A DNA stretch of 64,000 nucleotides, from assembly GCA_017433415.1 (NCBI GenBank), contig JAFRHI010000019.1:4327-68326 (forward strand), given 5' to 3'. The position numbers and the translations under genes are program-made. This document shows positions 42,761 through 64,000 of this stretch, one piece after another. Under the pieces are notes generated by a model. That model ran no database searches. It saw only the letters and a program-made list of their open reading frames with translations, and had not been told where the DNA came from. This DNA comes from Bacilli bacterium. GTDB taxonomy: Bacteria > Bacillota_I > Bacilli_A > RF39 > UBA660. The first letter of the stretch is position 1. Every line of letters starts with the position of its first letter.

Positions 42761-42846
42761 AACATCACCACTCTTATTAATCATACACCAAAAACAACTG
42801 TTTTGTCTTCTTTTTAAGAATAATTTAAAAAAAAGATAGTTCCCTA

Positions 42847-43581: not shown

Positions 43582-43592
43582 CTAACCATCCC

Positions 43593-45323: not shown

Positions 45324-45336
45324 AAAGGCCTCCTAA

Positions 45337-46863: not shown

Positions 46864-46864
46864 C

Positions 46865-47911: not shown

Positions 47912-47943
47912 GAAATCACTACCTTATCTCAAATTATATCATA

Positions 47944-48876
47944 TTAACTAGCTTTCTGAACAGTAACATTAATAATAGACGTATTATTAACAATTGGATA
48001 TGTATAATCCTCACTCATATCATCTTTATAAAAAATAATCGAACTACTAGAACTAGGATTAACCTTAAAAGAAAATTTCTTAACATATGTAAATCCATTT
48101 ATTTGTTCTGTATCATAATTAGTACTAAGTCTATGTAAATATAAATCATTTGTCATATCAACAAACAAATCATGGGGATCATATTCTACTGTTACAATTG
48201 CTGAAAAGCACTTATCCTTATCACTAGCACTAAGTTCACCATAATCTGCTAAACTAATATGATCTCCTACACTATAACTACCGAATGCCTCACTAACTTC
48301 ATAATAAGCAATAGAATTAATAAAGTTAATAGTCATGTATTTAGCACCAGCACTATCCTTTATATTATAAGAGAAATCACTATTTAAAACCTCAATAGTA
48401 TAAGTAGCACTCATACTCTTTCTATAAGGAGCAGAAGAAGTAACCGAAGTCTGAACAACAACACTATCCCCTTCATAAAAGTTTCTCTGTGGAGTAACCG
48501 TAATCTGATAAGTATCCGTACCATCTTCTGGTCTAATAACACCACTTGTCTTATTTAATGTACAAATAACATCACTAGAACATTCTACATCAATACTATA
48601 ACTAATATCTGTAGTCGTATATCTAGTAGAATTCTTACGATTATTCAAATCAATAGTAAGAGTATATGAGTTAACTCCATCCCAGTTACTAATAGACATT
48701 CTTTTATCATTAACCTTTAAAATACTACTATTAAAATAAAATGCCTTAGTTTCTAATATATAATTATTAACAATATTTTTTATATATCTACCAAAAGTAA
48801 ATTCAATTAATAAAACTACAATCAAAACACTCATAATAGATATACTAATAACTTTATGTTCCCTAATAAACTTCAT
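47944..48876 (-). CDS. secreted protein with SipW-type signal anchor (TasA-operon paralogue, larger)
   Basis: TM then FTFGRYIK. Beta-rich Ser/Thr-rich sequence. Confidence 0.45.
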   Translation of the reverse strand: MKFIREHKVISISIMSVLIVVLLIEFTFGRYIKNIVNNYILETKAFYFNSSILKVNDKRMSISNWDGVNSYTLTIDLNNRKNSTRYTTTDISYSIDVECSSDVICTLNKTSGVIRPEDGTDTYQITVTPQRNFYEGDSVVVQTSVTSSAPYRKSMSATYTIEVLNSDFSYNIKDSAGAKYMTINFINSIAYYEVSEAFGSYSVGDHISLADYGELSASDKDKCFSAIVTVEYDPHDLFVDMTNDLYLHRLSTNYDTEQINGFTYVKKFSFKVNPSSSSSIIFYKDDMSEDYTYPIVNNTSIINVTVQKAS

Positions 48877-48884
48877 AGCTCCTC

Positions 48885-49487
48885 CTATATCATCTGTTCT
48901 GAATGTAGATTTACTTCTATATTTTCAATACTATTAGCATAAGTAATATCATTAGCATAATTAAGAGGAAATTCAATAACTAATGAATAAACATCAGTAG
49001 TTTGACTACTATAATCAAGTTCATACTCCCCATCTACATTATAAATCTTATACCAAGCACCATCTTCATCATTAGCTGTCCTAGCTCCTTGAATTAGATT
49101 AGTACAATTACTAATATCACTACAATTACGATAAAGTTCCACAGTAATAGGTAAATTAGTAGTAGTAATAACTTTTAAATTATAAAGAAGATCAACATCA
49201 CTAGTCTTACTCTCATTAAAATTAGCCACAGAAAATCTATAAGTATATTTACCATTCTTTGGAATAATACCCTCTGGATCTAAATTAAAACTCATATCTC
49301 CGGCTTCAAAAATATATAAAGCTTGATCAATATCAGAATAAATACTAGCTTGTACTTCATATCTAGCATAAGCAATTCTAAGTAAATAAACAGCTAAAAC
49401 AAGTATTAAAAATAATCCAGCACCAAAAATGAGAAACCTTTTTTTCTCATCAAAATAAGAAATATTTTTAATACTAATATTCTTCAT
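48885..49487 (-). CDS. TasA/camelysin-like secreted protein
   Basis: TM then AYARYEV. IIPKNGKYTYRFSVANFNESKTSDVDLLYNLKV. Confidence 0.55.
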   Translation of the reverse strand: MKNISIKNISYFDEKKRFLIFGAGLFLILVLAVYLLRIAYARYEVQASIYSDIDQALYIFEAGDMSFNLDPEGIIPKNGKYTYRFSVANFNESKTSDVDLLYNLKVITTTNLPITVELYRNCSDISNCTNLIQGARTANDEDGAWYKIYNVDGEYELDYSSQTTDVYSLVIEFPLNYANDITYANSIENIEVNLHSEQMI

Positions 49488-49491
49488 TAAA

Positions 49492-50100
49492 TCACTCCGT
49501 ATAAGGAACTAATGTTTCTCCTCTATATTGAACTGCATGAAAATGAATTTCAAATAAATCTTCAAAAGAAGGACTTTCATAATCATCAGTAATCACAATA
49601 TCATTTAAATAATCAAATATAAAATCAGCACTTATATTAACCTTTTCCCCATCTTCTATATCATCCATTGTAACAATACCACTATAAGTGTCTCTTGCCG
49701 TTCTAACAATACCACTATCAGCTGTAATATTATTAAAAGTTAAAACCTTATCATCATCAATTCTTTTATCAATAAATTGAAAACTATACATTACAGCTAC
49801 ATCAGACTGCGTAGGATCAAGTTCCAAATAAACAGTTCCATAACTACCAGGAGATATTTTACCATCTCTAGTATGCGTAGAAGTCCAAGTAACATTATTT
49901 ATTATAATTTGATCAGAAAGTGTCCCATCACCAGTAACACTAATCCCATTAATATACAACTTAAATTTAGCAGTTGGTACCTTAGAATTACCTTCTACCA
50001 AGGATTCATAAGCAGTATAAGTAGTACTAGCACCTAAATATAAAAAACAAACTATCAATAAAACAATAAAAACAATTGTAAATTTCTTATTATCTTTCAT
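49492..50100 (-). CDS. TasA/camelysin-like secreted protein
   Basis: The ATG at 50100 follows GGAGTAGG. TM then TTYTAYES. ISPGSYGTVYLELDPTQSDVAVMYSFQF. Confidence 0.55.
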   Translation of the reverse strand: MKDNKKFTIVFIVLLIVCFLYLGASTTYTAYESLVEGNSKVPTAKFKLYINGISVTGDGTLSDQIIINNVTWTSTHTRDGKISPGSYGTVYLELDPTQSDVAVMYSFQFIDKRIDDDKVLTFNNITADSGIVRTARDTYSGIVTMDDIEDGEKVNISADFIFDYLNDIVITDDYESPSFEDLFEIHFHAVQYRGETLVPYTE

Positions 50101-50166
50101 ACCTACTCCTACTCTAACATTATAACAAATAAACAAAAGAAAATAAACACTTCATATGTTTATATT

Positions 50167-51057
50167 TTATATTAAAAAATATTCTCTTGCCATGATCCTT
50201 GAATCAGAACAATATTTTATTACATACTTATTATCATATTTACAAATAATTATCCCTATAGTCTTATCGTGATTAATATTTCTTAAACTTTCATCTATAT
50301 AATTCATATATATTTGTATCTGACCTACATATTCTTTCTTAATCTCAGTCACTTTAAGTTCTATTACTACAAAACAATTAAACTTATAATTAAATAGTAA
50401 TAAGTCAATATAATTATACCTATCACCAATTTTAATTTTATATTCACTACCTATAAAACTAAATGAATCACCAAGTTCTCTCATAAATGATTCAATATCT
50501 TCTAATATTAATTGATGTAATACTTTCTCTGTTATTACCTCTATATTATTCTTATTTCTAATTAAAATAGGATTAGGTACCAAATCTTTTACTTCAATTT
50601 TTTCTTTAGATATTAATTTATCCTTAGTTTCATTAGGCAATCTTTCATACTCCCTATTTTTAATTATCTCTTCTAATTGTCTTTTAGAAAGATTTCTTTT
50701 TTCTATTTGCTTAATATAATAATAGATTGTTGCAGTATCTTTTAATGGAATAAGAATTAAATAATGTGACCATGTCAATTGTGTCACCAGTGGTGACACT
50801 TTTTCATCATTAAACAAATTATATAATTGCTTCATCCTAAACAAAGTTCTTTTATTATATTTTTTACCAACTTCAACAACCAACTTCTTAGAATATTCCC
50901 CTATTATATTATCTCCATATTTTCCACCAGCTTCATTAAGTAATTTACCTATTTCAAAGTATGTAATAACCCTATTTCTTTCTTTAGAATAGTCTTTTAC
51001 TTTTGAATATATCTCATTATCAATTAATTTTTCTTTTATCTCTTCATAGTAATTCAT
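50167..51057 (-). CDS. DUF1016 / YhcG-like PD-(D/E)xK nuclease family protein
   Basis: LTWSHYLILIPL ... YIDLLLFNYKFNCFVVIELKV (D..ExK core). The ATG at 51057 follows GAGGAGAG. Confidence 0.7.
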   Translation of the reverse strand: MNYYEEIKEKLIDNEIYSKVKDYSKERNRVITYFEIGKLLNEAGGKYGDNIIGEYSKKLVVEVGKKYNKRTLFRMKQLYNLFNDEKVSPLVTQLTWSHYLILIPLKDTATIYYYIKQIEKRNLSKRQLEEIIKNREYERLPNETKDKLISKEKIEVKDLVPNPILIRNKNNIEVITEKVLHQLILEDIESFMRELGDSFSFIGSEYKIKIGDRYNYIDLLLFNYKFNCFVVIELKVTEIKKEYVGQIQIYMNYIDESLRNINHDKTIGIIICKYDNKYVIKYCSDSRIMAREYFLI

Positions 51058-51091
51058 ATCTTCTCTCCTCAATTTATTATTCAAAAGAAAA

Positions 51092-51130
51092 AAATATTTA
51101 TCCAACAAAAAAGTAGGATTTCTCCTACTT
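51092..51130 (-). terminator. terminator hairpin, copy A of a near-identical ~38-nt repeat
   Basis: Minus strand: AAGTAGGAGAAATCCTACTT then TTTTGTTGGATAAATATT. Matches 57429..57466 apart from one mismatch/indel. Confidence 0.7.
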
Positions 51131-51311: not shown

Positions 51312-51875
51312 CTACCTACTTTTTAATTTTTTCTTTAAATCATTTATCGCTAATGATCTTGCGCTTATATTATTCTTTTCATCAGAAGAAAGTTCAGCCA
51401 ATGTTAATCCACTTGGCAATTCAAATATTTCATCAAATCCAAACCCATTACTTCCCCTACATTCTTTAGAAATAAAACCATTTAATATTCCTTGACCAAC
51501 TACTTCTTGCTCTCCATCATAGTAAACTAAACAACATATCACCTGAGCACTTCTGTCTTCATGTTTATTTACTTCATTGATTAAATACTCATTTCTCATT
51601 CTATCTGTAGCATCATCACCTAAAAATCTGTGTGTCATAACACCAGGAAATCCATTTAAAGAATTAATACACAAACCAGAATCATCAGCAATAATCTCCT
51701 CATGAGAAACCTCATATATTTCTTTAGCTTTCTTCATTGCATTTCCTAAAAATGAATCTCTATCTTCTTCAACATCTACATTTATATTTTTATCTTTTAA
51801 AGAATATATTTCATAATCTGTTAATATTTTTCTAATTTCTTCCAATTTACCTTTATTATTAGTTGCTAAAATCAT
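51312..51875 (-). CDS. rdgB: non-canonical purine NTP pyrophosphatase (RdgB/HAM1)
   Basis: ATNNKGKLEE, DDSGL, GFGFDEIF motifs. Confidence 0.85.
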   Translation of the reverse strand: MILATNNKGKLEEIRKILTDYEIYSLKDKNINVDVEEDRDSFLGNAMKKAKEIYEVSHEEIIADDSGLCINSLNGFPGVMTHRFLGDDATDRMRNEYLINEVNKHEDRSAQVICCLVYYDGEQEVVGQGILNGFISKECRGSNGFGFDEIFELPSGLTLAELSSDEKNNISARSLAINDLKKKLKSR

Positions 51876-51911: not shown

Positions 51912-53132
51912 TTACATTAAAATTCTTTTTAATTTTTTACCTTTAGGAGAATCCAATATTTTAACTATTAAATTTTCATCTTGAATAAACGGTTCACTTA
52001 ATATTTCAATATCTTGAAATCTACTCTCCACAATCCTAAAAAAATCAATTAATCTTTCAGTTTTATTTTTGCTTATTATATCTTGTTTATCAACTACTTT
52101 ATCATATACTTCTTTTGTTTGTTCATAACCTGAATCATCAGATGTAAGTCTACCTTCACTAATTGCTTTTTCAAGTATAGCCATTTTTTGTTTATATACA
52201 TTACTCCTACTTATATGATAATCATAATCAAATAATTGTAATAATGGAACTTTAATATCATATATTCCATTTTCTCTTAATATTTTAATAAAAAATTCAA
52301 GAGCTAAAATATACTCATAATTGTATCTTATTTGTTTTTTTATATCTATCAAGGAATCAGCAATTTTTCTATCACTAGGCCAAATTGTGTATTTAGTTGC
52401 TTGAATTGCATAGATATAACAAATTTTCTTACCATCCTCGTTAATTATTTCAAAATAAATTTGTGGAAGAGGGAATCTTATTTTTATAAAAGAATCATTT
52501 TCAACATCGTCTTGAATAAAAATTGACACTTTTCTATTACTTTCACAAAAAGCACCTGCTGAGTCAAAACGATAACAAACATAGTAATTATTTAAATCAC
52601 ATAAATATGTTTCTTCATTATATTCTTTTTCAAAATATCTAGGTACATGAAAATATTTACTTTCGTTAAATGATATTTGACGCTCTAAAAATTTATAAAC
52701 ATTATCAAAATCTCCAGCTGACATTCTAATCCAAATACCATTTAAAATTGGAAAAATATAATTATCACCAAATTCTTCTTTTAATGAATCATTTAGCCCA
52801 TTTAATAAATCATTAAATCTAACAATATCATCTATATAAATATAATATGTATTATCATCTTTATTATATAAATATTCATCTCTATTTCTTTTTAAAACAG
52901 AAAGTACATATTCTACATCATCATTATATATGAAATAACCTTTTTTATTATTAATTTCTAGAATGTTATTTTTTACTTTTCTTTTAATTAAGTATTCAAT
53001 TAAATTAATATCCTCTAAGCTAAAAACAAATTTTAAATTTTTAGGGAATTCAAAATAATCGCGATTTTTAATAGCAACACTTATAAATATAAAATACAAT
53101 AATAAATCTACATTTTTATCCTTCATTTTCAT
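51912..53132 (-). CDS. hypothetical 406-aa protein
   Basis: ORF with GAGGGGTGG RBS. No recognisable motifs. Confidence 0.5.
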   Translation of the reverse strand: MKMKDKNVDLLLYFIFISVAIKNRDYFEFPKNLKFVFSLEDINLIEYLIKRKVKNNILEINNKKGYFIYNDDVEYVLSVLKRNRDEYLYNKDDNTYYIYIDDIVRFNDLLNGLNDSLKEEFGDNYIFPILNGIWIRMSAGDFDNVYKFLERQISFNESKYFHVPRYFEKEYNEETYLCDLNNYYVCYRFDSAGAFCESNRKVSIFIQDDVENDSFIKIRFPLPQIYFEIINEDGKKICYIYAIQATKYTIWPSDRKIADSLIDIKKQIRYNYEYILALEFFIKILRENGIYDIKVPLLQLFDYDYHISRSNVYKQKMAILEKAISEGRLTSDDSGYEQTKEVYDKVVDKQDIISKNKTERLIDFFRIVESRFQDIEILSEPFIQDENLIVKILDSPKGKKLKRILM

Positions 53133-53223: not shown

Positions 53224-53937
53224 TTATATCCACAAATCTCCTTTTAAAGGTTTAAATTTATACCTTTGACTCGGCCTATAGCCATTTTTTTCACTATTAG
53301 AAGAGGCAACTTTCTCACAATATTTAATAATTTTTTTTCTAAAATTCGACTTATCCACACTGCAATCTTTTATTAATTCATATACAATTCTTACGTCTTC
53401 TAAAGTAAAACTAGCACCCATAAATTTAAATATAATATCGGTACTATCAATATTATTTCTAATACGCTTATAGCTTATTAATAAATTCATTAATGTTCTC
53501 TTAATTTGCTCATCTTTAATTTTTATATCATGTATATATTCAATGTTATTGTTATCTTCTAATTCAATAGTTTTATATTGATACTCTTTATTATCTAGAA
53601 TAATTAAGCTATTACTTTTAATTTCAAAATCTACAAGTTTATAATCTTTTTTTAGTCTACTAATATTATCAATATTTGTTACACCTAGATAAATAATATC
53701 TATATCACTTTTATAATCCATTGTGTAGACTTGTTCTAAGTGAAAAATATTACTACCTATAATACTAGAAATATTATTTCTAACTTGTTTTTTTATCTCA
53801 TTACCCTTAATACTAATTGTAGGCAGTTCATTATTGTTATTGACTAATACTTTTAATTTTTTTACATCATTTTTTCTAATATTATCATTCTTTTCACTGT
53901 CTAATACGAATAGACAACTTACTAGATTTATTTGCAT
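53224..53937 (-). CDS. NrtR-like regulator (degenerate Nudix-like N-domain plus winged-helix C-domain)
   Basis: C-terminal FTLEDVRIVYELIKDCSVDKSNFRKKI...GYRPSQRYKFKP matches the NrtR wHTH signature (..NFRRK...RPaxlYrF). No Nudix box in the N-terminal half. Confidence 0.55.
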   Translation of the reverse strand: MQINLVSCLFVLDSEKNDNIRKNDVKKLKVLVNNNNELPTISIKGNEIKKQVRNNISSIIGSNIFHLEQVYTMDYKSDIDIIYLGVTNIDNISRLKKDYKLVDFEIKSNSLIILDNKEYQYKTIELEDNNNIEYIHDIKIKDEQIKRTLMNLLISYKRIRNNIDSTDIIFKFMGASFTLEDVRIVYELIKDCSVDKSNFRKKIIKYCEKVASSNSEKNGYRPSQRYKFKPLKGDLWI

Positions 53938-54475
53938 ATTCAAGCAACTCCTTACTAATAGTATCTGAAACTTCTAAAAGAAAAGAAGCAAAATTATCAA
54001 AATTTAAATATTTAGTATTTCCTTCTTTTTTTTGCTTTAGACATTCTATATTGTATTTTAACTTTTCTTCCAAAATTTTGCAATCATACTGACTTAATAT
54101 ATTTTCTAATTTACCAATATTTAATTTAAATCTATTAACAAGTAAAAAATTTAAATAATCATAATCTTTGTAAATAGCACCATCTAAAAATATATTTATA
54201 TTTGGATATAAATATTCTAAATAGTCATTTAAATAATGCTTATCTAAAAGCAAGTGCGTAAAGTAACCAATATTTAAATCATTACTAAAATCAAGGTTTT
54301 GTAAAAAGTATTCTATATCAGGTACCATATAAACACCACTTTGCACTTTTTGGTGACTATCTTCCATATCTATAATATCAGGAAGTAGATTTCCCTTAAT
54401 AAATTCATCACTATTTAAATTTAACCTTTTAGCAACTTCCTTAGCAATTATCATATGTGCACTTATATTAGGCAT
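53894..54475 (-). CDS. putative metal-dependent hydrolase (zinc-dependent phospholipase C-like fold?)
   Basis: MPNISAHMIIAKEV...GNLLPDI...SH...FTHLLLDKH His/Asp pattern. Weak assignment. Confidence 0.3.
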   Translation of the reverse strand: MPNISAHMIIAKEVAKRLNLNSDEFIKGNLLPDIIDMEDSHQKVQSGVYMVPDIEYFLQNLDFSNDLNIGYFTHLLLDKHYLNDYLEYLYPNINIFLDGAIYKDYDYLNFLLVNRFKLNIGKLENILSQYDCKILEEKLKYNIECLKQKKEGNTKYLNFDNFASFLLEVSDTISKELLEYANKSSKLSIRIRQ

Positions 54476-54497
54476 ATTATCTACTTCCCTTCACAAA

Positions 54498-54908
54498 TTA
54501 TTTTATATTATCAATTATCTCCTTTACTTTCATTGTTTCTTCTTCTAATGATAAGCCAGTGCAATCTACCATAAACAACTTATCACCCAAAAAATTTTTT
54601 TGTTTCATATATAAATATGTTTCTAAATATAAAAGATTATATAGATAAGCATATTTATCATATTCATCAACTGTCTCGCGTAATTGTATTCTTCTTTCCA
54701 ATTCAGCTCTATCATTATTAATTAAAAATATTACATAGTTTTTATTTGTATCTAAGTACTTTTTAAGTTTATTTGCTCTATCTACTAGTGATACATTAAA
54801 GTCAAATAACTTACATATATTTTTATCACGATCAAGTAATTCATAATCACTTAAATTATTTATTACACTTGTTTTACCAACTGCATCTGTTCCTTCTAAT
54901 ATTATCAT
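54498..54908 (-). CDS. small P-loop nucleoside/nucleotide kinase-like protein (136 aa)
   Basis: MIILEGTDAVGKTS resembles the EGxDGxGKT(T/S) motif of dTMP / deoxynucleoside kinases. Confidence 0.5.
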   Translation of the reverse strand: MIILEGTDAVGKTSVINNLSDYELLDRDKNICKLFDFNVSLVDRANKLKKYLDTNKNYVIFLINNDRAELERRIQLRETVDEYDKYAYLYNLLYLETYLYMKQKNFLGDKLFMVDCTGLSLEEETMKVKEIIDNIK

Positions 54909-54921
54909 ATATTATCCTCTT

Positions 54922-56208
54922 TTAAAGTTTTATTAAATCTTTATCTTTCCTACCAATTCCTATAAAAGCAATTTTTTCTTTTGTTTCTTTTTCAATGTAA
55001 TTAATATATTCTTTTAATTCTTTTGGAATATTATTTTTATTAATATTATCAATATTCCCCCATCCTTTAAATTCAATATAATGAGGTTTTAATTTTTTTA
55101 ATTCTTCAACATCATCTGGCATAACATATATTTTTTCATTCATATCATTTAGATAATAATCACACACTTTTACAACTTCTAAATCTTGCATAATATCCAA
55201 TTTATTTAATATTAATTTAGCATTTTTATGTCCTATTAATGATTTTTTTAATGTTGGCAAATCAAACCATCCTAGTCTTCTTTTCATATTTTCAGCATCG
55301 TCTACTTCTGAATTATACTTATATAACTTATTTGCATCTTTTTCATCCATTTCAGTTAGAAATGGTCTTTTATTCAAGCAACAAAAATATCCAGTAATTA
55401 TAACATACATTTCATTTAAATAGTAAGGACTAATATTTGCACCATTTAATAAAGAATTTATACTAGTTGAAGCACTAGTTGTAAATGGATTAAGTCCATG
55501 TAAATTATCTAACATAATTCCGTTACAACCTTCTATAAGAACATTTGCACTAGACTCTATATTATATAAGAAATTACTATAATCTTTACAAAAACTACCT
55601 ATCATCTTTTCTATTTGAATAAAATCTTCAATAAGACTTTCAGCCTCAAGTTTAAAATAATCATCTTTTTTATCTTGATAAAATGATTTATCTAATTCAT
55701 AACAAGATTCTTTTATTTTTCCAACCAACATATCAAACGAAATATTATTATTTATAACATTTTTTATATCAATTAGTTTAACTGAATGTCTAGCATCTCT
55801 TGCGATTACTGCATTTCCTGTTCCTTGATTTGTACTACCATATTTTTTTGAATGATTTTGACTCTTATTTCTATCAATATAAGGATTTATAAGTAAACTT
55901 ATACTTGATGCTATTGTTATATTATTATATATTTTATATAAATCGTTCCTGCTTTCTAATTCCAATCTTAATGCATGTAAGTTTAACACTGCACCAGGAG
56001 CAACAACAAACTTAATATTTTCTTTACCAAATACTGATGGCAATTGTTTTGTTACAAAACTTTTTCCATCTTCTAATACTACAGTATGTGAAGCATTAGT
56101 AGATGCATTAACTCTAAAAATATAATCATAATTTTTACCTAAATTAGAAACAATTTTTCCTTTTCCTTCATCACCATATAATCCACCAACTATTACATCA
56201 ACTCTCAT
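54922..56208 (-). CDS. highly divergent adenylosuccinate synthetase (PurA)-family ligase
   Basis: GGLYGDEGKGKIV (cf. GTQWGDEGKGK), NASHTV (cf. NAGHT), GSTNQGTGNA (cf. GTTGRGIGPA), IEGCNGIMLDNLHG (cf. FEGAQGTLLDIDHG), KRRLGWFD (cf. RRRTGWLD). The TTGR and STRVG motifs are not conserved. Confidence 0.65.
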   Translation of the reverse strand: MRVDVIVGGLYGDEGKGKIVSNLGKNYDYIFRVNASTNASHTVVLEDGKSFVTKQLPSVFGKENIKFVVAPGAVLNLHALRLELESRNDLYKIYNNITIASSISLLINPYIDRNKSQNHSKKYGSTNQGTGNAVIARDARHSVKLIDIKNVINNNISFDMLVGKIKESCYELDKSFYQDKKDDYFKLEAESLIEDFIQIEKMIGSFCKDYSNFLYNIESSANVLIEGCNGIMLDNLHGLNPFTTSASTSINSLLNGANISPYYLNEMYVIITGYFCCLNKRPFLTEMDEKDANKLYKYNSEVDDAENMKRRLGWFDLPTLKKSLIGHKNAKLILNKLDIMQDLEVVKVCDYYLNDMNEKIYVMPDDVEELKKLKPHYIEFKGWGNIDNINKNNIPKELKEYINYIEKETKEKIAFIGIGRKDKDLIKL

Positions 56209-56719
56209 ATTTTTTCTCCTTTAATTCATTAATATAATCAATTATTTCTTCTTCATTATTTACAAATTTAATTTCTATATTTTTATTTAATTGTTTACAA
56301 GTTAGAATTGGAAACCAGTATTCTCCTTCAACTTCGTAACTTGTTACTTTTGGATCACAAAATATAACTATTTTCTTTTGCTTAAAAGCAGCATATATTA
56401 TTTCTGTTACTGAAGCTATTGCTGAATTTTTTGTTAAATTAGCAACAACTAGATCACACCTATCTATTTGTTTTAATTCTTCACTTACTACATTTTCACA
56501 AACCGTTTTATTAACATCTTGCTTTTCATAATAAAACCCTCCAACATACATAACATTTTTATTCTTTTCAATAATTACACCATCAGAAGCATAAACTGTA
56601 TCTTTAACACTTCCAACAATTTTACTTCGCATATCATCTTTCAACATTTCTAATACATTTTCTTCATTAATCATTTCATGCCTAACTTTGTATGTTCCTG
56701 AATAAAATAATTTAATCAT
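56198..56719 (-). CDS. nucleoside 2-deoxyribosyltransferase-like (NDT/SLOG fold) protein
   Basis: YVGGFYYE ... DLVVANLTKNSAIASVTEIIYAAFKQKKIVIF resembles the NDT GTxxE(I/L)GYA helix. Confidence 0.45.
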   Translation of the reverse strand: MIKLFYSGTYKVRHEMINEENVLEMLKDDMRSKIVGSVKDTVYASDGVIIEKNKNVMYVGGFYYEKQDVNKTVCENVVSEELKQIDRCDLVVANLTKNSAIASVTEIIYAAFKQKKIVIFCDPKVTSYEVEGEYWFPILTCKQLNKNIEIKFVNNEEEIIDYINELKEKKYES

Positions 56720-56720
56720 A

Positions 56721-57275
56721 TCATTTTTGTCCTTTCATAATTTTATTCCAGTTTATATAAGATACAACAGCCATAAATGTCCAAATAATATTTAATGCGA
56801 ATAAATATAATGCTTGATCAGGAAGAATAAAATATTCTACTGCATAAAAAATATTATTAATAAACCAAATTATCCAAGTATCAATTTTCTTTTTCATCAT
56901 ATAATAAGTAGCAATTAAACTAGATATTGTTGTAAATGAATCAAGTAATGGTAATGGATCATCTGTATTTTTAAGAACAATACTTAAAATAATTGTTCCT
57001 AAAGTAATTAACAAAATATAAATTATTTTTTCCTTTGTACTTGCTTTAGTTATTTTACTTGATTCTTTTCTATCATTCCAAAGTATAAATCCTACTATAC
57101 CCATAGCAAAATAAATACTATTATTAGCTATGTCACCATATAAATGATTTATAGCTGAAAATAATAACAAGAATAACATCTGCAAAATATAGAATATCCA
57201 ATTACTCCTTTTATTAAGCATTACTAATACTCCTTGTATTAAGCCAAATACTGTGGCTCCTATTTCAAAAATCAT
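56721..57275 (-). CDS. pnuC: PnuC-family nucleoside (nicotinamide riboside-type) transporter
   Basis: About 7 TM in 184 aa. WIIWFINNIFY motif. Promoter is TTGACA, 15-nt spacer, TGgTATAAT at about 57300-57330. Confidence 0.7.
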   Translation of the reverse strand: MIFEIGATVFGLIQGVLVMLNKRSNWIFYILQMLFLLLFSAINHLYGDIANNSIYFAMGIVGFILWNDRKESSKITKASTKEKIIYILLITLGTIILSIVLKNTDDPLPLLDSFTTISSLIATYYMMKKKIDTWIIWFINNIFYAVEYFILPDQALYLFALNIIWTFMAVVSYINWNKIMKGQK

Positions 57276-57428
57276 CTAAATCATCTCCTTACATATAGTA
57301 TATTATACCATAAGTAATTAACTGTCAATATATTTATGGTTATTTTTACTATAAGTTATAATTTTATATCAAATACATCGGATTTATCAGTAATCTGATA
57401 CATAATCATAATAATCTTTTAACAAAGA

Positions 57429-57466
57429 AATATTTATCCAAAAAAAAGTAGGATTTCTCCTACTTA
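57429..57466 (-). terminator. terminator hairpin, copy B of the ~38-nt repeat
   Basis: Minus strand: AAGTAGGAGAAATCCTACTT then TTTTTTTGGATAAATATT. Overlaps the stop codon of the 57464 gene. Confidence 0.7.
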
Positions 57467-58204
57467 TAATATTTCTATTTCTTCCTCTTCTTTCTTATTG
57501 TCAGACTCTAGAGATTCAACTTCTTCTTTAACAGGATTATCATCAAATTCTTCTACAACCTTTTCAATAACTGGCTCTTCTGCTTTTTCTGGTTCTTCTT
57601 GTTTAATATAGTTAGATGTAGTTTTTTTCAAATCATAAAGTTTTTTATCGCTACCATCATCTTCATCATCTTCAACTTTTTCATAACGAAGAATAATAAC
57701 GAACTCATAGATTTGATAAATAAATACTATAATGATTGGTAAAAGTACCAAGAATAAGAAACCAATTCTACTTTCTAAAACAGTAAGTACACTACCCCAT
57801 TTAGGATAAACTGATGAATATTTTCCTAATACCTTATTTGAAGAAACAGTTAAATTACTACCATCATCAACAGTATACAAAGCTGTCAAATCTTCTTTTT
57901 TAACATCAAGAACTACATCACTTTTAATAAGATAATTTTCATCAAAAACTGCATAATAATAAATTAAATCGCCCTTATTAATATCATTAGAATTCTTAAC
58001 TATTAATAAATCTCCCTTTTTAACATTATCAATATTAGTTTCCCCTATTAAACTAACATTATAAAATGTATAATCTCCAAATTGTGTATAGCCATATTTA
58101 TTCCTACTTAAAATAAACGAAGTAAGAATAATTGCATAAATAATAATAATTACTTCTACAAATGACCAAATAAAACGTAAAACCTTTTTCACTAGTATCA
58201 CCAT
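57464..58204 (-). CDS. SipW-like signal-peptidase homologue that appears to lack the catalytic Ser and His, with acidic C-terminal tail
   Basis: Colinear with SipW (FGDYTFYNVSLIGETN...KKGDLLIVK...INKGDLI...LIKSDVV...TVDDGSN...VLGKY). SGSM is replaced by VSLIG and THRI by IKSD. A TM lies after the domain, as in SipW. Confidence 0.55.
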   Translation of the reverse strand: MVILVKKVLRFIWSFVEVIIIIYAIILTSFILSRNKYGYTQFGDYTFYNVSLIGETNIDNVKKGDLLIVKNSNDINKGDLIYYYAVFDENYLIKSDVVLDVKKEDLTALYTVDDGSNLTVSSNKVLGKYSSVYPKWGSVLTVLESRIGFLFLVLLPIIIVFIYQIYEFVIILRYEKVEDDEDDGSDKKLYDLKKTTSNYIKQEEPEKAEEPVIEKVVEEFDDNPVKEEVESLESDNKKEEEEIEIL

Positions 58205-58240
58205 CCTAATTTTACCATAAAAGACTTTAATTTAAAATAA

Positions 58241-61200
58241 CTATTCTACAATTTTTTTAACAATCACATATTTGACATCATCATCAATCACTTGATTATT
58301 ATCATATAACTTAAAGACAATCTTATAAGTACCACTAGTTAAATTATCAATCAAAGTAAACCTAACATTTCCCGTATTGGAATTACCAATATTAATATAT
58401 TTTTCATTTCCACTAGCAGTAGTTAATCTCTCTTTAAATAAGTGGTCAAAAGGAATAGATTCATATTCTGTAGAATTAATATCATCTATTTTTCTTTTAA
58501 ATACTTCAACCCTTAAATTTGGATTATTAAGTTCTGATTCATATGTAACAGTATAAGTATTAACAGTACTTTCATTTAAGTTAAGACCAGTCTCACCAAT
58601 AACTACTTTTTCTAAGTCTTCACTACTAACAACAATAGCATTATCACTACCAACCACATATACCGTAAATTCACTAGTAACAGAATTTTCATAAATTGAA
58701 TTATGAAGACCATCACTAGAAGCAAACAATGTACAACGTAAAGTATATTCACCAACCGGTAAATCTTTAGTAGCAGTTATTTTTGGTCTAATACTTAAGT
58801 TCGTAACTTTATCTGCAAGTTTTATTCTAAATATTCCATCCCCATCAGCAAAGTACTCTTGACCATTAATATTAATACTTGTACCAATAAGTAAACTTGA
58901 ACTAACAGGGTCACCATTTCTATCAAGAATAGATATATTAATACCCATATTACTAGATTCATAATTAGTATCAATAACTGGTTGTCTATTTTCTGTTTCA
59001 TTATATTGAACAAGAGTTGAATAATCATAATTATGATCAATACCATAATAAATATATGGTTCTCCAAAATTAATAACTTGCTGTAAAACAACGTTACTAC
59101 TTTCAAAAGTATTATAAACCATTAAACTTTGTCTAATACCCAAAACATTATAAACTGTTCGATCCTCATTATTACGCATCTCAAAAAGAATTGTATTATC
59201 AGGATGATTTCCTGTAACAGTTGTCTCTTTAAAATCAAATATAAACAAGAACTCTTCATCAACTATACCTATATCAGAATCATAATAAGCTAAATTAGCT
59301 GCTTGATCATCATAAGTATTATTAGTACTTGTACTATCCATTTTAATAAAATTACTAAGTCGATAACTAACTTCATGATCGTTTTGTAACTGAATTAAAG
59401 AAGCATTATAAACACTATTAGTTACTTCAAAATAATAATATTCCGGTCGACTACTATTTTGTGTATTATCAATCATTGTAATAAGAGTTCCAACAGGTAA
59501 TGGATTATTACTAGTTAAAACACGATAATTACTATTATTATGACCATAAAATTCTTCAAAGTCATTAGTACTAGCAACCATTGAAAAATAAGCAGTAAAT
59601 TGACTTTGATTAGTAATATTTACTAATGTTGATGAAGGCATTTCATACTTCTTATCATAAGTAATAGAAGCATCATAACTATCAGCATCATTATATCTTT
59701 TTGCAACTAAATCAATAGTTATAGTTATATATTTAATATCATACTCAATAGCATTTTTTGGAATTTCTGCTCGTAAAGTAACAATTACAGTTCCTAATGG
59801 ACCTTGAGCATCTATATTTTTAGTATGATATAAATAAAACATTAATGAAGGTGGTAATTGCCTTGTATCTGTCATATAGTCTAATGTTCCTGAATAACGT
59901 GGACTACTACTAGAATATTTTGTTGTACCATGTCCCGTCCACTCTTGAGTCTCAGCTTTCATCGCAAGACCAAAGACACTATTTGCTTCAGCTTGCGTTG
60001 CTCCTATTCTTGGAACATTTGCTGGGTCTACAAGACTTATTCCTTGATTTAGACCACTTGCATCAAAATCCAAAACACTAAATCTTGTACTACCATCAGC
60101 AAAGTCAATAAGTTGAAGTTCATAAGTACCAAGTGATGAATATTTCGAAGCATTTAACGTAAATCCGTAGTTAATTGCCTCAAAACCGATAATCCATCTA
60201 TAACCAGTTGCACCAATCTCACTAGGATCAATATAAGCAGTTGAAACTTCCGTAAATTCATCATCTAAGAAATTAGAATAGAAACCATCTTTAGTAATAT
60301 CATGATTAACACTATGTAAACCAATTACATAACTACCACCAACAACCATCATTGAAGCAGATCCAGTATCACCATAATCAACACTTTTATCATAAAGTCC
60401 AAAATTATAGCGACCATTTTCATATTGATTGTACATTCCAAAGAAAGTCATACCCGTAACTTTACCATATGCTGTAGCAGCTTGGTTAATTGTAACATTT
60501 AAGTTTTGTCCTGGTTTCATATAAATACGATTATCAACATTTTTAGTAACAGTTTTTGTATCATCATCAATATCCACAACAGCTGGGACTAAAGTACCAT
60601 TACTATCAACACCACTATATAATTCCTTCAATAAGTTAGCATTATGCATTAAAAGTAATGTTGTATTATTTTTTATTACCATTTTATCAATCATATTAAA
60701 TGAATAAAAAATATCCGAATATTCATTAGTTCTATCTGTTGCTCCAGAAAGTTCGATAACTGAAGAATCTATTTCTAAATAATTAGCTCTTTGAATTGAG
60801 ATACTCTTGTTAGGGCTTTCAATACTACCTAAATTCTTAATATAAATATTTGATAATCCAGATGATGAAGATGCATTACCTGAACCAAAAATACTACCAT
60901 TAATAATAAAGTCTAAACTATTATCACTATAACCAGTACCATCAATATTAACATCAATTCCTTCAGTTACTGAAATAAAGTTCCAGTCGTAAGTCTCACT
61001 ACCACTAGCGTTTGACTCACCACCACCAAAGACAGTACCAGAAATTATAATGTCATCACGCGTCAAATTACTATTATTAACTGCAGCATAACCGATATTA
61101 GTATCAGTTGTACCATAAACAACTGCCATTTTTGGTCCACCATAAACATTTCCATGAACTGTACCACCAACTAAATTAACTGTTGCTTTAGAGTTATTTG

Positions 61201-64000
61201 TACTACTTCTTCCAGTTGATGCTGCATTACCAGAACCAAAAACACAACCACCATTAGGTGCTACAGAATTTGCAGTACCAATAACACTAGTACCATCAAT
61301 AGTAATAGTTGAATTTCCATAAACAACTGCACTACTACCATTACCACCAGCAAAAGCATTACCATTAATTATTCCATTATGGACATAAACATTCGTATTA
61401 CCGTTAACTACTCCTTCATTTCCACCACCATAAATATTATTAGTGATAGTTGAAGAATTAATTGTTAAATCCGTATTATTATCAACACCAGCAGCATTTC
61501 CGCCACCATAAACATTAGTTACTTGACAACTTCCAATCGTTGTTGTGGCACTTCCAGTTTGAGCTTCATTTCCACCACCATAAACAGTTCCGATTACTCC
61601 TCCAATAACATTTACAGAAGTAGAAGTAGTGTACCCTCCACTATTATTTCCACCACCAAATAAATTAATAATATTTTCACTATTTATCGTAACATGACTA
61701 TCTCCAGTAGCAGCATTATTTCCACCACCAAAGACATTAGGAATAGTAGAACTAGTAACAGTTAATGTTGCATCTTCAACTCTTCCACCTTGATTATTTC
61801 CACCATATAAAGCTGTAAGTGTAGCATTATTAACTAAAACATCACTACTATTAACATTTCCTGAAATATTAGAACCACCATAGACAGTTCCACTAGTAGT
61901 ATTTTTAACCTCAACATTAGTAGAACCTACACCGGCTTTTTTACCACCGCCATAGATATCATGAACATTAACACCATCTACATCAACATTAGATGTCGTA
62001 GTAGAAGCCTCGTTACCTCCACCATAAATGTCACCATTAATCGTACCACCAGTAACATTAACATTTGAAGTAACAGTAGTACCAGCAATATTATTACCAC
62101 CATAAATATTAGTAACAGAACCAGATGTCACAGTAACATTTGAGGTATTAATTGTACCATTTAAGTTTGAACCACCAAATAAATCACCAGTAATTGTTGA
62201 ACCTTGAAGACGAATATCAGTAGTCGTTTGACTAGCATTTCTACCTCCACCATAACAATTACCAATAGTACCAGCATTCAAGTAAACTACATCACCAGCA
62301 CTTGGACTACCAGATGCATCAAAACCACCATAAACAGCTCCAATATTACCACCATTTATATTTACTGTAATATCCCCCACTACACGTGGTGTATAATCAC
62401 TACTACCTTTTCCACCACCGAAGACATTTTCAGTTATAACACCATTATTAATGGTAACAGTTGTATCATAACTAGAACTATTTGTATTCTGATCAATAGC
62501 GTTAACCGTACCATAAGCAGAGCCACCATAGACACTACCTTTGATAGTTCCATTATTTACGATAACATTAACATCTCTTTCTACATAAGTACCATCATAT
62601 TCTTCATCAAGTCCACCTTTTCCTCCACCATAAACACTACCATTAATAGTACCACCATTAACAGTAACATTAGAATTTCCATAAATTGTTCCTTCAATGT
62701 TAGAACCACCATAAACATCGCCTTTTATTAATCCACCAGAAATATCAATAAAGGAATTAGAAGGTTTTTCATCAGTTCCTCCACCATTTCTATTTCCTCC
62801 ACCATAGACATTCCCATCAATGGTTCCACCAATTATCTTTATCTTAGTTTCACTTGAATCATTATTAGTACCAGTACCTGTAGCACCAAAGTTTCCTCCA
62901 CCATAAACATTACCTAATATATGTGCACTTCCATCAATAACAATATAAGCATTATCATTCGAACCAACAGTATCAGAAGCTAAATTACCGTGCCCATTAC
63001 CAAAAACACTACCAGCTTCCGCTTCCCAAAGAGTATTACCATCATTTACATTATCACTATCACCAACAGTAGCATTTCCACCAATATATATGTATGAATC
63101 TCCTTGTAAAAGTCCTGCATTACTAGTTTCAGCATAAGCATTAGATCCACCAAATAAACTATAATTTACCTGTCCACCAGTCATACTAATAATTCTATTA
63201 GCATATGTCGTTGTAGTACCAGCACCACCATTTACATTATCAATAGAACCACCTTTTATATATAGGAATAATTTATTTCGATTAGCATGTTCTTCTGGTT
63301 GCATTGGCCCACCAACCACGTTATAGAACCAACCACCTTCAATAGTAGTAACAGCAGGTGTATAAACACGACCATATCCTCTGGCTCCGAAATAAGCACC
63401 TGTTGCATGATCAAATTTACCTGTACCAAAAGATCCACTTTTATAAACATTATTAAATCCAGGTTTAATATCATCTGTAGAATGAACATAACCAGACCAC
63501 ATTGGTGAAAAAACAAAACCGAATATTAATTTATCATTATCATTTTTAACTCTATCTATATCAGATCCAAAAATAGTTGATTCGTCAACATAATAAACAT
63601 GCGTATCATTTCTTGGTCCCTCTACACTAGAACCAACATTATAAACACCAGACTCAATAATCATTCTATATCTTTTAGGACTAGAAGCTGATCCAGTATC
63701 GGCAAAGCCATTATTACCACCCAAGACACCTATAAATGATGTAGTTGTTGAATTTGCAGAAGTTATTCCTCTACCTAATTTTATATTATGAAAATTACCA
63801 TAAAAATAATTAGTTTCCGTGGCAGAAGTACTAGGTGTTGAACTTGAAAAACCTGAACCTGATGAAATATATATATTCTCAATTGCTACATCAGCATAAG
63901 CCTTAACATAATCATTATCATCAGAATAATCAACATCCCAACCAGCATTGTTAGTACTACGATAATTTGTACCATTATGAACACTAGTTAGCGTAAATGG
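58241..64000 (-). CDS. giant surface protein (more than 1,900 aa, N-terminus beyond the window): beta-helix GG(G/S)N repeat region plus a C-terminal beta-sandwich-like region
   Basis: The frame stays open from 63724 to 64000 (own translation ...GRGITSANSTTTSFIGVLGGNNGF). About 40 repeats of the type G(T/S)IxGxVYGGGNxxG with about 19-20-aa period. Confidence 0.75.
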   Translation of the reverse strand, partial: PFTLTSVHNGTNYRSTNNAGWDVDYSDDNDYVKAYADVAIENIYISSGSGFSSSTPSTSATETNYFYGNFHNIKLGRGITSANSTTTSFIGVLGGNNGFADTGSASSPKRYRMIIESGVYNVGSSVEGPRNDTHVYYVDESTIFGSDIDRVKNDNDKLIFGFVFSPMWSGYVHSTDDIKPGFNNVYKSGSFGTGKFDHATGAYFGARGYGRVYTPAVTTIEGGWFYNVVGGPMQPEEHANRNKLFLYIKGGSIDNVNGGAGTTTTYANRIISMTGGQVNYSLFGGSNAYAETSNAGLLQGDSYIYIGGNATVGDSDNVNDGNTLWEAEAGSVFGNGHGNLASDTVGSNDNAYIVIDGSAHILGNVYGGGNFGATGTGTNNDSSETKIKIIGGTIDGNVYGGGNRNGGGTDEKPSNSFIDISGGLIKGDVYGGSNIEGTIYGNSNVTVNGGTINGSVYGGGKGGLDEEYDGTYVERDVNVIVNNGTIKGSVYGGSAYGTVNAIDQNTNSSSYDTTVTINNGVITENVFGGGKGSSDYTPRVVGDITVNINGGNIGAVYGGFDASGSPSAGDVVYLNAGTIGNCYGGGRNASQTTTDIRLQGSTITGDLFGGSNLNGTINTSNVTVTSGSVTNIYGGNNIAGTTVTSNVNVTGGTINGDIYGGGNEASTTTSNVDVDGVNVHDIYGGGKKAGVGSTNVEVKNTTSGTVYGGSNISGNVNSSDVLVNNATLTALYGGNNQGGRVEDATLTVTSSTIPNVFGGGNNAATGDSHVTINSENIINLFGGGNNSGGYTTSTSVNVIGGVIGTVYGGGNEAQTGSATTTIGSCQVTNVYGGGNAAGVDNNTDLTINSSTITNNIYGGGNEGVVNGNTNVYVHNGIINGNAFAGGNGSSAVVYGNSTITIDGTSVIGTANSVAPNGGCVFGSGNAASTGRSSTNNSKATVNLVGGTVHGNVYGGPKMAVVYGTTDTNIGYAAVNNSNLTRDDIIISGTVFGGGESNASGSETYDWNFISVTEGIDVNIDGTGYSDNSLDFIINGSIFGSGNASSSSGLSNIYIKNLGSIESPNKSISIQRANYLEIDSSVIELSGATDRTNEYSDIFYSFNMIDKMVIKNNTTLLLMHNANLLKELYSGVDSNGTLVPAVVDIDDDTKTVTKNVDNRIYMKPGQNLNVTINQAATAYGKVTGMTFFGMYNQYENGRYNFGLYDKSVDYGDTGSASMMVVGGSYVIGLHSVNHDITKDGFYSNFLDDEFTEVSTAYIDPSEIGATGYRWIIGFEAINYGFTLNASKYSSLGTYELQLIDFADGSTRFSVLDFDASGLNQGISLVDPANVPRIGATQAEANSVFGLAMKAETQEWTGHGTTKYSSSSPRYSGTLDYMTDTRQLPPSLMFYLYHTKNIDAQGPLGTVIVTLRAEIPKNAIEYDIKYITITIDLVAKRYNDADSYDASITYDKKYEMPSSTLVNITNQSQFTAYFSMVASTNDFEEFYGHNNSNYRVLTSNNPLPVGTLITMIDNTQNSSRPEYYYFEVTNSVYNASLIQLQNDHEVSYRLSNFIKMDSTSTNNTYDDQAANLAYYDSDIGIVDEEFLFIFDFKETTVTGNHPDNTILFEMRNNEDRTVYNVLGIRQSLMVYNTFESSNVVLQQVINFGEPYIYYGIDHNYDYSTLVQYNETENRQPVIDTNYESSNMGINISILDRNGDPVSSSLLIGTSININGQEYFADGDGIFRIKLADKVTNLSIRPKITATKDLPVGEYTLRCTLFASSDGLHNSIYENSVTSEFTVYVVGSDNAIVVSSEDLEKVVIGETGLNLNESTVNTYTVTYESELNNPNLRVEVFKRKIDDINSTEYESIPFDHLFKERLTTASGNEKYINIGNSNTGNVRFTLIDNLTSGTYKIVFKLYDNNQVIDDDVKYVIVKKIVE

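Follow-up and report, generated by a model that had tools for sequence, protein, structure and literature searches.

A set of six closely packed genes lies on the minus strand at positions 53224-57275 of a 64-kb stretch of DNA from a Bacilli bacterium (contig JAFRHI010000019.1). This stretch is referred to as the window; the operon is described on window numbering, and L001-L141 are labels of related loci with which it was compared. The genes code for a transporter of the PnuC family, a protein resembling nucleoside deoxyribosyltransferases (NDT), a divergent member of the PurA or adenylosuccinate synthetase (AdSS) family, a very small P-loop kinase, a protein with conserved His and Asp residues, and a regulator of the NrtR type. 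A first-pass annotation, made from the sequence alone, had described six close-packed genes behind a good promoter (TTGACA, 15-nt spacer, TGgTATAAT), and both the open reading frames (ORFs) and the promoter are present. The features of the locus are as follows.

57334..57354, minus strand: predicted operator 1, coding-strand sequence TTATAGTAAAAATAACCATAA, palindromic over 21 bp around a GT-N7-AC core; it abuts the -35 element on the upstream side
57302..57328, minus strand: predicted promoter, TTGACA (57328-57323), 15-nt spacer including TGg (TGn), TATAAT (57307-57302)
57293..57313, minus strand: predicted operator 2, one mismatch; it lies 41 bp from operator 1 and covers the -10 element and the start of transcription
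57290-57285, minus strand: ribosome-binding site AAGGAG ahead of the PnuC-family gene
56721..57275, minus strand: PnuC-family facilitator, 184 aa (PF04973 and TIGR01528)
56198..56719, minus strand: putative NDT-fold enzyme, 173 aa (AlphaFold2 model and Foldseek)
54922..56208, minus strand: divergent PurA-family ligase, 428 aa (PF00709)
54498..54908, minus strand: putative mini P-loop kinase, 136 aa (motifs and weak profile matches)
53894..54475, minus strand: orphan His/Asp protein, predicted all-alpha, earlier called a hydrolase, 193 aa (AlphaFold2 model)
53224..53937, minus strand: predicted NrtR-family repressor, degenerate Nudix-like N-domain and winged helix (PF21906)
51912..53132, minus strand: ORF of 406 aa between the repressor gene and Ham1
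51312..51875, minus strand: Ham1/RdgB (d)ITP/XTP pyrophosphatase, last gene of the conserved unit (TIGR00042 and PF01725)

The six genes overlap their neighbours or are separated from them by at most 22 nt. There is a gap of 1 nt between the genes for PnuC and the NDT-like protein, an overlap of 11 nt between the latter and the ligase gene, gaps of 13 nt between ligase and kinase and of 22 nt between kinase and His/Asp protein, and an overlap of 44-50 nt between the genes for the His/Asp protein and the regulator. As in relatives, the regulator gene likely starts with the ATG at 53937. The promoter is the top-scoring sigma-70-like site of the region, and its position and sequence block are kept in the upstream alignment of relatives; an alternative parse, with a 17-nt spacer and TAATAT, is equally valid. 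No terminator-like sites were found between 57275 and 51312. A gene for RdgB had been placed just downstream of the six genes. Ham1 is indeed encoded at 51312-51875, but it is separated from the regulator gene by the ORF of 406 residues. This ORF has no match in Pfam, PADLOC or PHROG; it is missing from the genome loci mapped by tblastn, and a 54%-identical copy occurs in L133. It is probably lineage-specific and outside the core.

The gene set was found in more than 40 related loci, collected by following ligase relatives, by scanning genomes for the NDT-like family and by a pattern scan of metagenomes. All 30 loci from the genome scan belong to metagenome-assembled genomes from gut or rumen, and the remainder are gut, rumen and other metagenome contigs. 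Taxon labels are Bacilli, Erysipelotrichaceae, Tenericutes or Mycoplasmatota, while three long contigs are assigned to Candidatus Saccharibacteria. As mapped by tblastn, the core consists of PnuC, the NDT-like protein, the kinase, the His/Asp protein, the NrtR-like regulator and Ham1. PnuC is always its first gene, and in most relatives Ham1 overlaps the stop codon of the regulator gene. The unit keeps its place in the chromosome among housekeeping genes. Several core genes also occur in fused form. In two Saccharibacteria loci the NDT-like protein, the kinase and Ham1 form a single protein of 500-527 aa, encoded directly after a PnuC homologue (L040:10001-11503, L043:9932-11515). The His/Asp protein is fused to the kinase in L037 and L039, and the ligase to the kinase in L006. 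The gene set is a conserved functional unit whose parts are tied together by fusions, and its conservation across more than 40 loci is beyond chance. A lack of conservation in relatives, which would have spoken against the six genes being a unit, is thus ruled out. Literature searches did not turn up this gene combination.

One position of the operon is variable. The slot between the genes for the NDT-like protein and the kinase is occupied by a canonical purA, by purA and purB, by the divergent ligase, by both ligases, or by nothing. The divergent ligase is the sole occupant in the window and in L001, L004, L006, L026, L042, L133 and L136. It is also the only one visible in L137 and L140, fragments in which contig ends cut the ligase, so that an adjacent purA is possible. 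A canonical purA stands alone in L014, L019, L024, L025, L028 and L031; it is accompanied by purB in L035, and in L033 and L017 the operator is followed by purB as the leading gene. The two ligases are adjacent, in either order, in L017, L018/L141, L129 and L130. At many loci the slot holds neither ligase; among these, L020 has a gene for endonuclease V and L023 one for a cytidylyltransferase-like protein (NMNAT/PPAT-type). The purA from the slot is about 27% identical to the divergent ligase and has the motifs GGNNAGHT, IGTTKRGIGPAY, EGAQ and GTTTKRPRR. The flanking genes are 85-94% identical between genomes with the divergent ligase and genomes with the canonical purA in the slot.

Ham1 is always present, and the products of purA and purB, Ham1 and endonuclease V all handle hypoxanthine nucleotides. 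This is our main reason for assigning the operon to purine rather than NAD salvage. The textbook route from inosine monophosphate (IMP) to AMP runs through adenylosuccinate and needs PurA and PurB; we know of no other. The earlier view that a PurA-family ligase belongs to no salvage route cannot be kept, since in sister loci the operon itself includes canonical purA and purB, which ties it to ordinary IMP-to-AMP chemistry.

The slot and the adjacent kinase gene show further variation. In loci without purA (L015:10500-10982; L020, L021, L027 and L029) the kinase carries a fused N-terminal domain of 160 aa, in which the motifs ExK, KRRRTY and DVDDF...EVS are CYTH-like by eye. The N-domain of the 300-aa kinase variants was tried as a CYTH triphosphatase and the assignment was dropped: Pfam and PDB profiles gave nothing significant, and the sole match was phrog_6660, a family of unknown function. 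In L037 (1627-1905) the slot contains a ligase remnant of 92 aa in which N- and C-terminal pieces are joined and the P-loop has degraded to YEKEGKGK, which indicates that the ligase was lost recently in that lineage.

The divergent ligase matches PF00709 over its full length (6.6e-81) and passes this Pfam superfamily model. It misses the NCBIfam cut-offs for PurA (TIGR00184, 240.8 vs 395.55; NF002223, 238.8 vs 402) and for PurZ (NF038379, 91 vs 300), and it is about 27-30% identical to PurA (EC 6.3.4.4). Residues were numbered by alignment to a hand-entered E. coli PurA sequence, and 20 of the 20 residues checked by literature numbering matched. The residue pattern holds clade-wide, including members that are only 40% identical to the window protein. 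Residues for GTP binding, catalysis and the 5'-phosphate are retained, namely GDEGKGK (D13, K16), N38, H41, T129, R143, T239, R305/R306 and the guanine motif NKLD. In contrast, a series of changes in the pocket is found throughout the clade: Q34N, R131Q, I133T, A223C, Q224N, I230N, R272C, V273L, A275K, G276R, G298D, T300A, T301E and R303M/N/K. The aspartate and 2'-OH positions 131, 273, 300, 301, 303 and 304 read Q, L, A, E, M and K in the window; R131Q, V273L, T300A and T301E are invariant in the clade, and no member has Arg at position 303. Mutation of R131, R303 and R304 of the E. coli enzyme reportedly raises the Km for aspartate 50-200-fold (a finding attributed to Wang et al. in 1995). 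Judged by these scores and residues, the ligase is not a canonical AdSS. The clade is an uncharacterised branch of the AdSS family with a rebuilt pocket for the third substrate, and from the rebuilding of this pocket it follows that the reaction is probably one not yet described.

The phage enzyme PurZ had been named as a possible analogue, and the comparison is apt in one respect, the shared loss of R303 with its contact to the ribose 2'-OH and aspartate. In PurA, R303 contacts O2' of IMP and aspartate; in the dGMP-specific PurZ the equivalent residue is withdrawn and the equivalent of V273 is pushed toward C2', excluding ribonucleotides, while TT(V)T at the loop tip makes contact with aspartate (PMC8342488). 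PurZ is a PurA-family enzyme that has been diverted to another substrate, forming N6-succino-2-amino-dAMP from dGMP and aspartate, and the ligase may be a parallel case. PurZ of Vibrio phage K300 and the ligase clade share T128S, R131Q and the loss of R303. A nucleoside triphosphate pyrophosphatase that would supply the monophosphate is a partner of both, MazZ there and Ham1 here. The differences are equally clear. PurZ carries D13S, works with ATP and retains EGAQG, RVGG and the tip that contacts aspartate, whereas the ligase keeps D13 and the GTP motif, has its loop tip rewritten to D-x-A-E, and is encoded in a chromosomal cellular operon without DatZ or DpoZ. From these comparisons we infer that the clade still activates a 6-oxo nucleotide with GTP, and that the pocket for the ribose 2' position and the nucleophile is new. 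It is likely that the substrate is a 2'-deoxy compound and/or that the nitrogen donor is non-canonical. The loss of R303 and the exchange of V273 for Leu, following the logic of the dGMP-specific PurZ, favour a 2'-deoxy substrate (dIMP). The replacement of T300, T301, R131 and R304, together with the presence of D298, E301, K275 and R276, favours a nucleophile that is bound unlike aspartate or is not aspartate.

The retention of the ligase beside an intact canonical purA in several genomes speaks against its being simply the AdSS of the cell. The two genes adjoin each other, in both orders, in L017, L018/L141, L129, L130, L138 and L139; in the last two, as in L125, the pairing stands in another genomic context. 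The dN/dS ratio is 0.06-0.2 for the ligase, and purA and ligase both fall at about 0.05-0.2, indicative of purifying selection. L017 and L018 are separated by a dS of about 1.0-1.3 and each keep both ligases. As both genes are kept under purifying selection, purA and the divergent ligase are not redundant. Simple displacement of purA in situ was considered and down-weighted in view of the repeated coexistence, the occurrence of both orders and the purifying selection. In L017 and L125, purB is frameshifted beside an intact divergent ligase, at different sites, and in L125 purA is frameshifted too (L017:8041-9439; L125:8311-10965). Intact purB occurs in L035 and L033, both of which are without the divergent ligase. 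The broken purB genes hint that the ligase is independent of the lyase; these are two assemblies, in which gene decay or assembly error is possible.

Members of the ligase clade also occur outside the operon. Relatives that are 58-61% identical and have the same active-site signature are found in gut contigs of low GC content (L125, L126 and L131), where their neighbours are a short-chain dehydrogenase/reductase (SDR), an FmdA::HisG::Tmk fusion and a SAICAR-synthetase-like gene. Clusters for pentostatin and coformycin are known mainly from actinomycetes. Their hallmark is the combination of PenA (HisG-like), PenB (SDR) and PenC (SAICAR-synthetase-like), for which roles have been described (PMC12648386). 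The sets of pentostatin type extend over L125:1-15299, L126:3241-8296 and L131:2-4888, on contigs with 27-30% GC, and comprise in addition a formamidase, a HisG-fused thymidylate-kinase-like domain, ABC exporters and the divergent ligase. Gene clusters of this type in low-GC gut bacteria are a by-product of our analysis. PenA/PenB/PenC-type genes (HisG-like, SDR, PurC-like) are absent from the window operon and from its direct relatives. A distant clade member in L012 has the gene order HisA-HisIE-HisG-PurC-like-FmdA-PurC-like-ligase-Gmk; nucleoside monophosphate (NMP) kinases adjoin the ligase in L012 and L126.

Three further contigs are phage-like. Another distant member, in L010 (6669-10606), has the order HisG-Ham1-ligase-PurC-like-HAD; L008 (8001-14776) carries a member together with endonuclease V; and in L128 (4776-8281) the ligase is accompanied by a nucleotidyltransferase and a protein with a mini-kinase-like N-terminus. 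These arrangements may be phage modules for the nucleotide pool or for counter-defence. Among GenBank phages there was no clade member with more than 30% identity, and a clade-specific pattern found none in IMG/VR, where the matches of an alignment scan were dominated by canonical PurA through the GDEGKGK pattern. The outside contexts may fit a ligase that supplies (d)adenine nucleotides or one that acts on a ring-modified IMP analogue. We tentatively propose, with the odds clearly against the proposal holding in full, that the ligase has a new activity in purine metabolism, being a GTP-dependent aminating enzyme for a 6-oxopurine nucleotide (most likely dIMP or IMP) that would not employ L-aspartate in the canonical manner. 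It would perhaps require no adenylosuccinate lyase, for example by accepting ammonia or another amine directly, and the activity would have been recruited into the salvage operon, pentostatin-type clusters and phages.

With respect to the other proteins, the family assignments of the first-pass annotation hold for PnuC, the AdSS family, the winged helix of NrtR and Ham1, while the NDT-like protein, the kinase and the supposed Zn-dependent phospholipase C-like (Zn-PLC) hydrolase remain below Pfam cut-offs. The transporter matches PF04973 (131.5 vs 27.3; 4e-38) and exceeds the cut-off of TIGR01528 (75.9 vs 42.45). Nicotinamide riboside (NR) is coordinated in PnuC of N. mucosa by Q124, Q196, N214 and Y242, and pairs of PnuC with NadR-like proteins are known (PMC13464706). 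In an alignment to the corresponding structure (4QTN) these positions read G, T, N and W, so that three of the four NR contacts are changed, although a pairwise alignment of membrane proteins is approximate. The PnuC homologue PnuN of lactobacilli has been predicted from genome context to transport deoxynucleosides (PMC7749635). Our operon resembles these systems in having a Pnu-family facilitator beside a small kinase. It differs in that the NR contacts are not conserved, the kinase is from an orphan family of 136 aa, the NDT-fold protein would be closer in fold to NMP N-glycosidases, and the regulator is assigned to the NrtR family rather than being NrdR or NiaR. No NadR-like gene occurs in the operon loci, and the cytidylyltransferase-like gene is restricted to L023.

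Lactobacilli salvage deoxynucleosides by means of NDT and deoxynucleoside kinases. The NDT-like protein of the operon scores below the Pfam gathering thresholds (PF15891, 23.8 vs 30; PF05014, 21.5 vs 28.8; best 6e-5), and a profile of its family gave no significant match to a solved structure in PDB (best E 1.5). An AlphaFold2 model was obtained with pLDDT 75 and pTM 0.77, in which an extra N-terminal segment of about 50 residues has lower confidence. The top Foldseek matches in PDB are all from the NDT superfamily (7m5h, MilB, BcmB, DNPH1 and NDTs), with E from 4e-5 to 1e-3, probability 1.00 and TM of about 0.5-0.6, and the CMP N-glycosidases MilB/BcmB and DNPH1 rank above true NDTs. With hhalign, E81 is paired with D80 of DNPH1 and E106 with the nucleophile E104, but the alignment, to a hand-entered DNPH1 sequence, is weak (E 0.026, probability 1.9%); E81 and E106 are invariant in the family. 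According to the model, the protein has the NDT fold, which it shares with the N-glycosidases DNPH1/Rcl, MilB and BcmB; its two acidic residues may correspond to the D80/E104 pair of DNPH1. It is set apart from these enzymes by the lack of a significant profile match, the sub-threshold Pfam scores and the extra N-terminal segment.

The kinase has the motif EGTDxxGK(T/S) as a P-loop of the type found in thymidylate kinases (TMPK), a DR motif and the Arg-rich lid ELxRRxxxR. Its matches are all sub-threshold (TIGR00041, E 0.011, 15.5 vs 83.25 bits; PDB 9wd2, E 0.0047; phrog_761, 9e-5), and with 136 aa it is shorter than thymidylate and deoxynucleoside kinases (about 200 aa). The family comprises 91 clusters among 1.84 billion representatives. 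From its motifs it appears to be remotely related to thymidylate and deoxynucleoside kinases and to form an orphan family. The His/Asp protein has the conserved residues H7, D33, H41, H74 and D78, by which it probably binds metal. Its AlphaFold2 model is all-alpha and of high confidence (pLDDT 91, pTM 0.88), and no fold match was found in PDB or BFVD. The match to Zn_dep_PLPC (PF00882; 22.8 vs a cut-off of 26.8; 9.5e-5) covers the first 78 residues only. The protein was tried as a hydrolase of the PLC/P1 or HD fold, and the label had to be given up, as PDB and BFVD offered no support at the fold level. Ham1 exceeds the cut-off of TIGR00042 (162.6 vs 145.35) and matches PF01725 (3e-56).

The regulator exceeds the cut-off for the winged helix PF21906 (44 bits vs 27; 2.4e-11). 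Its best match among PDB profiles is AraR (5bs6, 2e-14), followed by NadQ (7q91), 2fml and NrtR (3gz5). The N-domain aligns weakly to those of AraR and NadQ (independent E 1.6 and 60), and the NCBIfam NrtR equivalog is missed by far (36.6 vs 400). An alignment of the upstream regions revealed a 21-bp palindrome, TTATrGT-N7-ACyATAA, in two copies around the promoter. Operator 1 matches the pattern TTATRGT-N7-ACYATAA without mismatch. When up to one mismatch is allowed, there are two matches in 64 kb where 0.26 are expected, and these are operators 1 and 2. Of the 30 genome loci, about 25 have the motif ahead of the operon and nowhere else, and most relatives have a second copy, likewise 41 bp away. 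In L017 and L033, whose operons begin with purB, the operator precedes that gene. The 21-bp symmetry and the GT-N7-AC core correspond to the operator consensus of the NrtR family (PMC2330246). On this evidence the regulator is assigned to the NrtR family, with the two palindromes as its predicted operators. As for NrtR, AraR and NadQ, the C-terminal winged helix is above the Pfam cut-off and the palindrome has the typical core, and the gene lies inside the operon that bears its predicted operators. Unlike these regulators, it has only a weak match in the Nudix-like N-domain, falls short of the NrtR equivalog, and would control purine genes. Since the regulated genes point to purine rather than NAD metabolism, the effector is probably not ADP-ribose. 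A different palindrome, TATCAG-TAAT-CTGATA, had been suggested as the NrtR site. It does exist at 57385-57400, but it was rejected as an operator: it is kept in the two closest relatives only, and there with one arm only, while the 21-bp palindrome is the conserved element.

We propose that the operon serves the uptake and intracellular processing of a hypoxanthine-type purine nucleoside (inosine and/or 2'-deoxyinosine) under the control of an NrtR-family repressor in genome-reduced gut Bacilli and Saccharibacteria, and we assign this proposal a probability of about 50%. The PnuC-family facilitator would admit the nucleoside. By the logic of Pnu transporters, which combine facilitated diffusion with metabolic trapping, the small kinase would then trap it as 5'-monophosphate, or it may phosphorylate an NMP product. 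The NDT-fold enzyme, similar to DNPH1/MilB, would release or exchange the base on (deoxy)ribose(-phosphate) at the nucleoside or nucleotide level. The ligase, on this view a neofunctionalised member of the PurA family, would activate the 6-oxo group with GTP and replace it by a nitrogen nucleophile, and Ham1 would return (d)ITP/XTP to the monophosphate pool. An undescribed nucleoside salvage or modification pathway, as had been suspected from the sequence, is still a fair label, given a conserved unit with a non-canonical PurA.

Several points weigh against this proposal. Every enzymatic step in it is one that we infer. Neither a second purA nor purB is encoded in the 64-kb window, to which this statement is confined. 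PnuC passes the NCBIfam cut-off for NR transporters, and the family of the regulator is known above all for its part in NAD metabolism. Both the ribo-specific MilB/BcmB and the deoxy-specific DNPH1 are among the top structural matches of the NDT-like protein. The kinase may phosphorylate NMPs instead of nucleosides: it has only weak TMPK matches, and in L012 and L126 the neighbours of the ligase include NMP kinases. As the nearest outside relatives of the ligase are found in pentostatin-type clusters, its nucleotide substrate may not be (d)IMP. Finally, the class III ribonucleotide reductase NrdD encoded in the window indicates that the organism can make deoxynucleotides itself and does not depend on the import of deoxynucleosides.

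If the nucleoside uptake proposal is correct, the operon provides a concrete and testable picture of purine nucleotide acquisition in uncultured, genome-reduced gut Bacilli and Saccharibacteria. That a normal purA is kept beside an AdSS-family enzyme whose third-substrate pocket is rebuilt suggests either a deoxy-specific branch, that is, a cellular counterpart of the PurZ logic, or a different nitrogen donor. New parts would be a PnuC-family transporter with a role in purine metabolism, an orphan kinase family of 136 aa, a confidently folded protein without known structural relative, and a repressor of the NrtR family that has a defined operator and acts outside NAD metabolism.

Other explanations of the operon were weighed against uptake and processing of a hypoxanthine-type nucleoside. 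It is rather unlikely that the operon represents ordinary purine salvage in which the ligase is an isofunctional AdSS (acting on IMP, Asp and GTP), a xenologue that displaces purA and is maybe resistant to an AdSS inhibitor of neighbouring organisms. The ligase does sit in exactly the slot of canonical purA, with flanks 85-94% identical, and retains all catalytic, GTP and 5'-phosphate residues. The new basic residues K275 and R276 could stand in for R131/R303 in carboxylate binding, and the relatives in pentostatin-type clusters could be copies for self-resistance or precursor supply. However, purA and ligase are neighbours, in one order or the other, in six or more independent loci, and are kept across a dS of about 1; R131, R303 and R304 are all replaced and T301 is changed to Glu; and the purB beside the ligase is frameshifted in L017 and L125. 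We also regard as unlikely that a ring-modified or unusual purine nucleoside, such as a pentostatin/coformycin-type precursor from gut bacteria, is imported, phosphorylated and aminated by the ligase for use, activation or detoxification. Such a substrate would agree with the alterations in the base pocket (A223C, Q224N, I230N) and with the placement of the 58-61%-identical relatives in PenA/PenB/PenC-type clusters with FmdA and an NMP kinase (L125, L126 and L131) and of distant members beside HisG-like and PurC-like genes (L010 and L012); partners resembling Zn-PLC, nucleotidyltransferases and kinases recur in those contexts. The HisG-like, PurC-like and SDR genes are, however, missing from the window and its relatives, the same slot is filled by canonical purA/purB, which act on IMP, and no compound is known for the gut clusters.

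The initial idea that PnuC, kinase and NrtR might together serve NAD or riboside salvage has become distinctly improbable. In such a scheme, PnuC would import NR, the kinase would convert it to nicotinamide mononucleotide (NMN), NrtR would sense ADP-ribose, and the other genes would be passengers. This would be consistent with the matches to PF04973 and, above the cut-off, to TIGR01528, with the known PnuC and NadR-like pairs (PMC13464706), with a regulator of the NrtR family and its family-typical operator, and with the NMNAT/PPAT-type gene in the slot of L023. It is disfavoured by the exchange of three of the four NR-coordinating residues and by the absence of an NMN adenylyltransferase from all loci but one, and it leaves no role for purA, purB, endonuclease V and Ham1. 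Furthermore, members of the NrtR family with other effectors exist, AraR being the best PDB match of our regulator. No riboswitch, and in particular no NAD riboswitch, was detected ahead of pnuC in an Rfam scan of the whole window at gathering thresholds, the sole match of which is a SAM riboswitch at 6305-6388 on the minus strand (RF00162, 65 bits). As an anti-phage defence system or cargo of a mobile element the operon would be very hard to account for, and we give this explanation almost no weight. Folds of the NDT/TIR type and nucleotide-modifying enzymes are common in defence systems, and some phage-like contigs carry members of the ligase clade. Yet PADLOC gave no meaningful match for any of the eight proteins, the chromosomal position is stable with housekeeping neighbours, and control by a repressor and operators is typical of metabolic operons.

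The surroundings of the operon are chromosomal DNA of an anaerobe with about 23-25% GC, with NrdD, PFOR and RecG nearby. The class III anaerobic ribonucleotide reductase NrdD, which has an ATP-cone domain, is encoded at 9150-11417 on the minus strand. Directly upstream of the operon, at 57464-63724 (minus strand), there are genes for a protein of 1827 aa rich in Gly/Asn/Thr repeats and then for a SipW-like signal peptidase (weak match), which probably belong to a surface or pilus-like structure. Directly downstream of Ham1, a run of ORFs nearly devoid of Pfam matches extends over 42847-51108; among the products are a DUF2357 protein (44193-45323) and a YhcG/DUF1016 nuclease of the PDDEXK type (50167-51108), and the run may be a defence or mobile island. 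A gene at 41309-42850 (minus strand) codes for a protein of 513 aa from DUF1846 (1e-161), a widespread family without assigned function.

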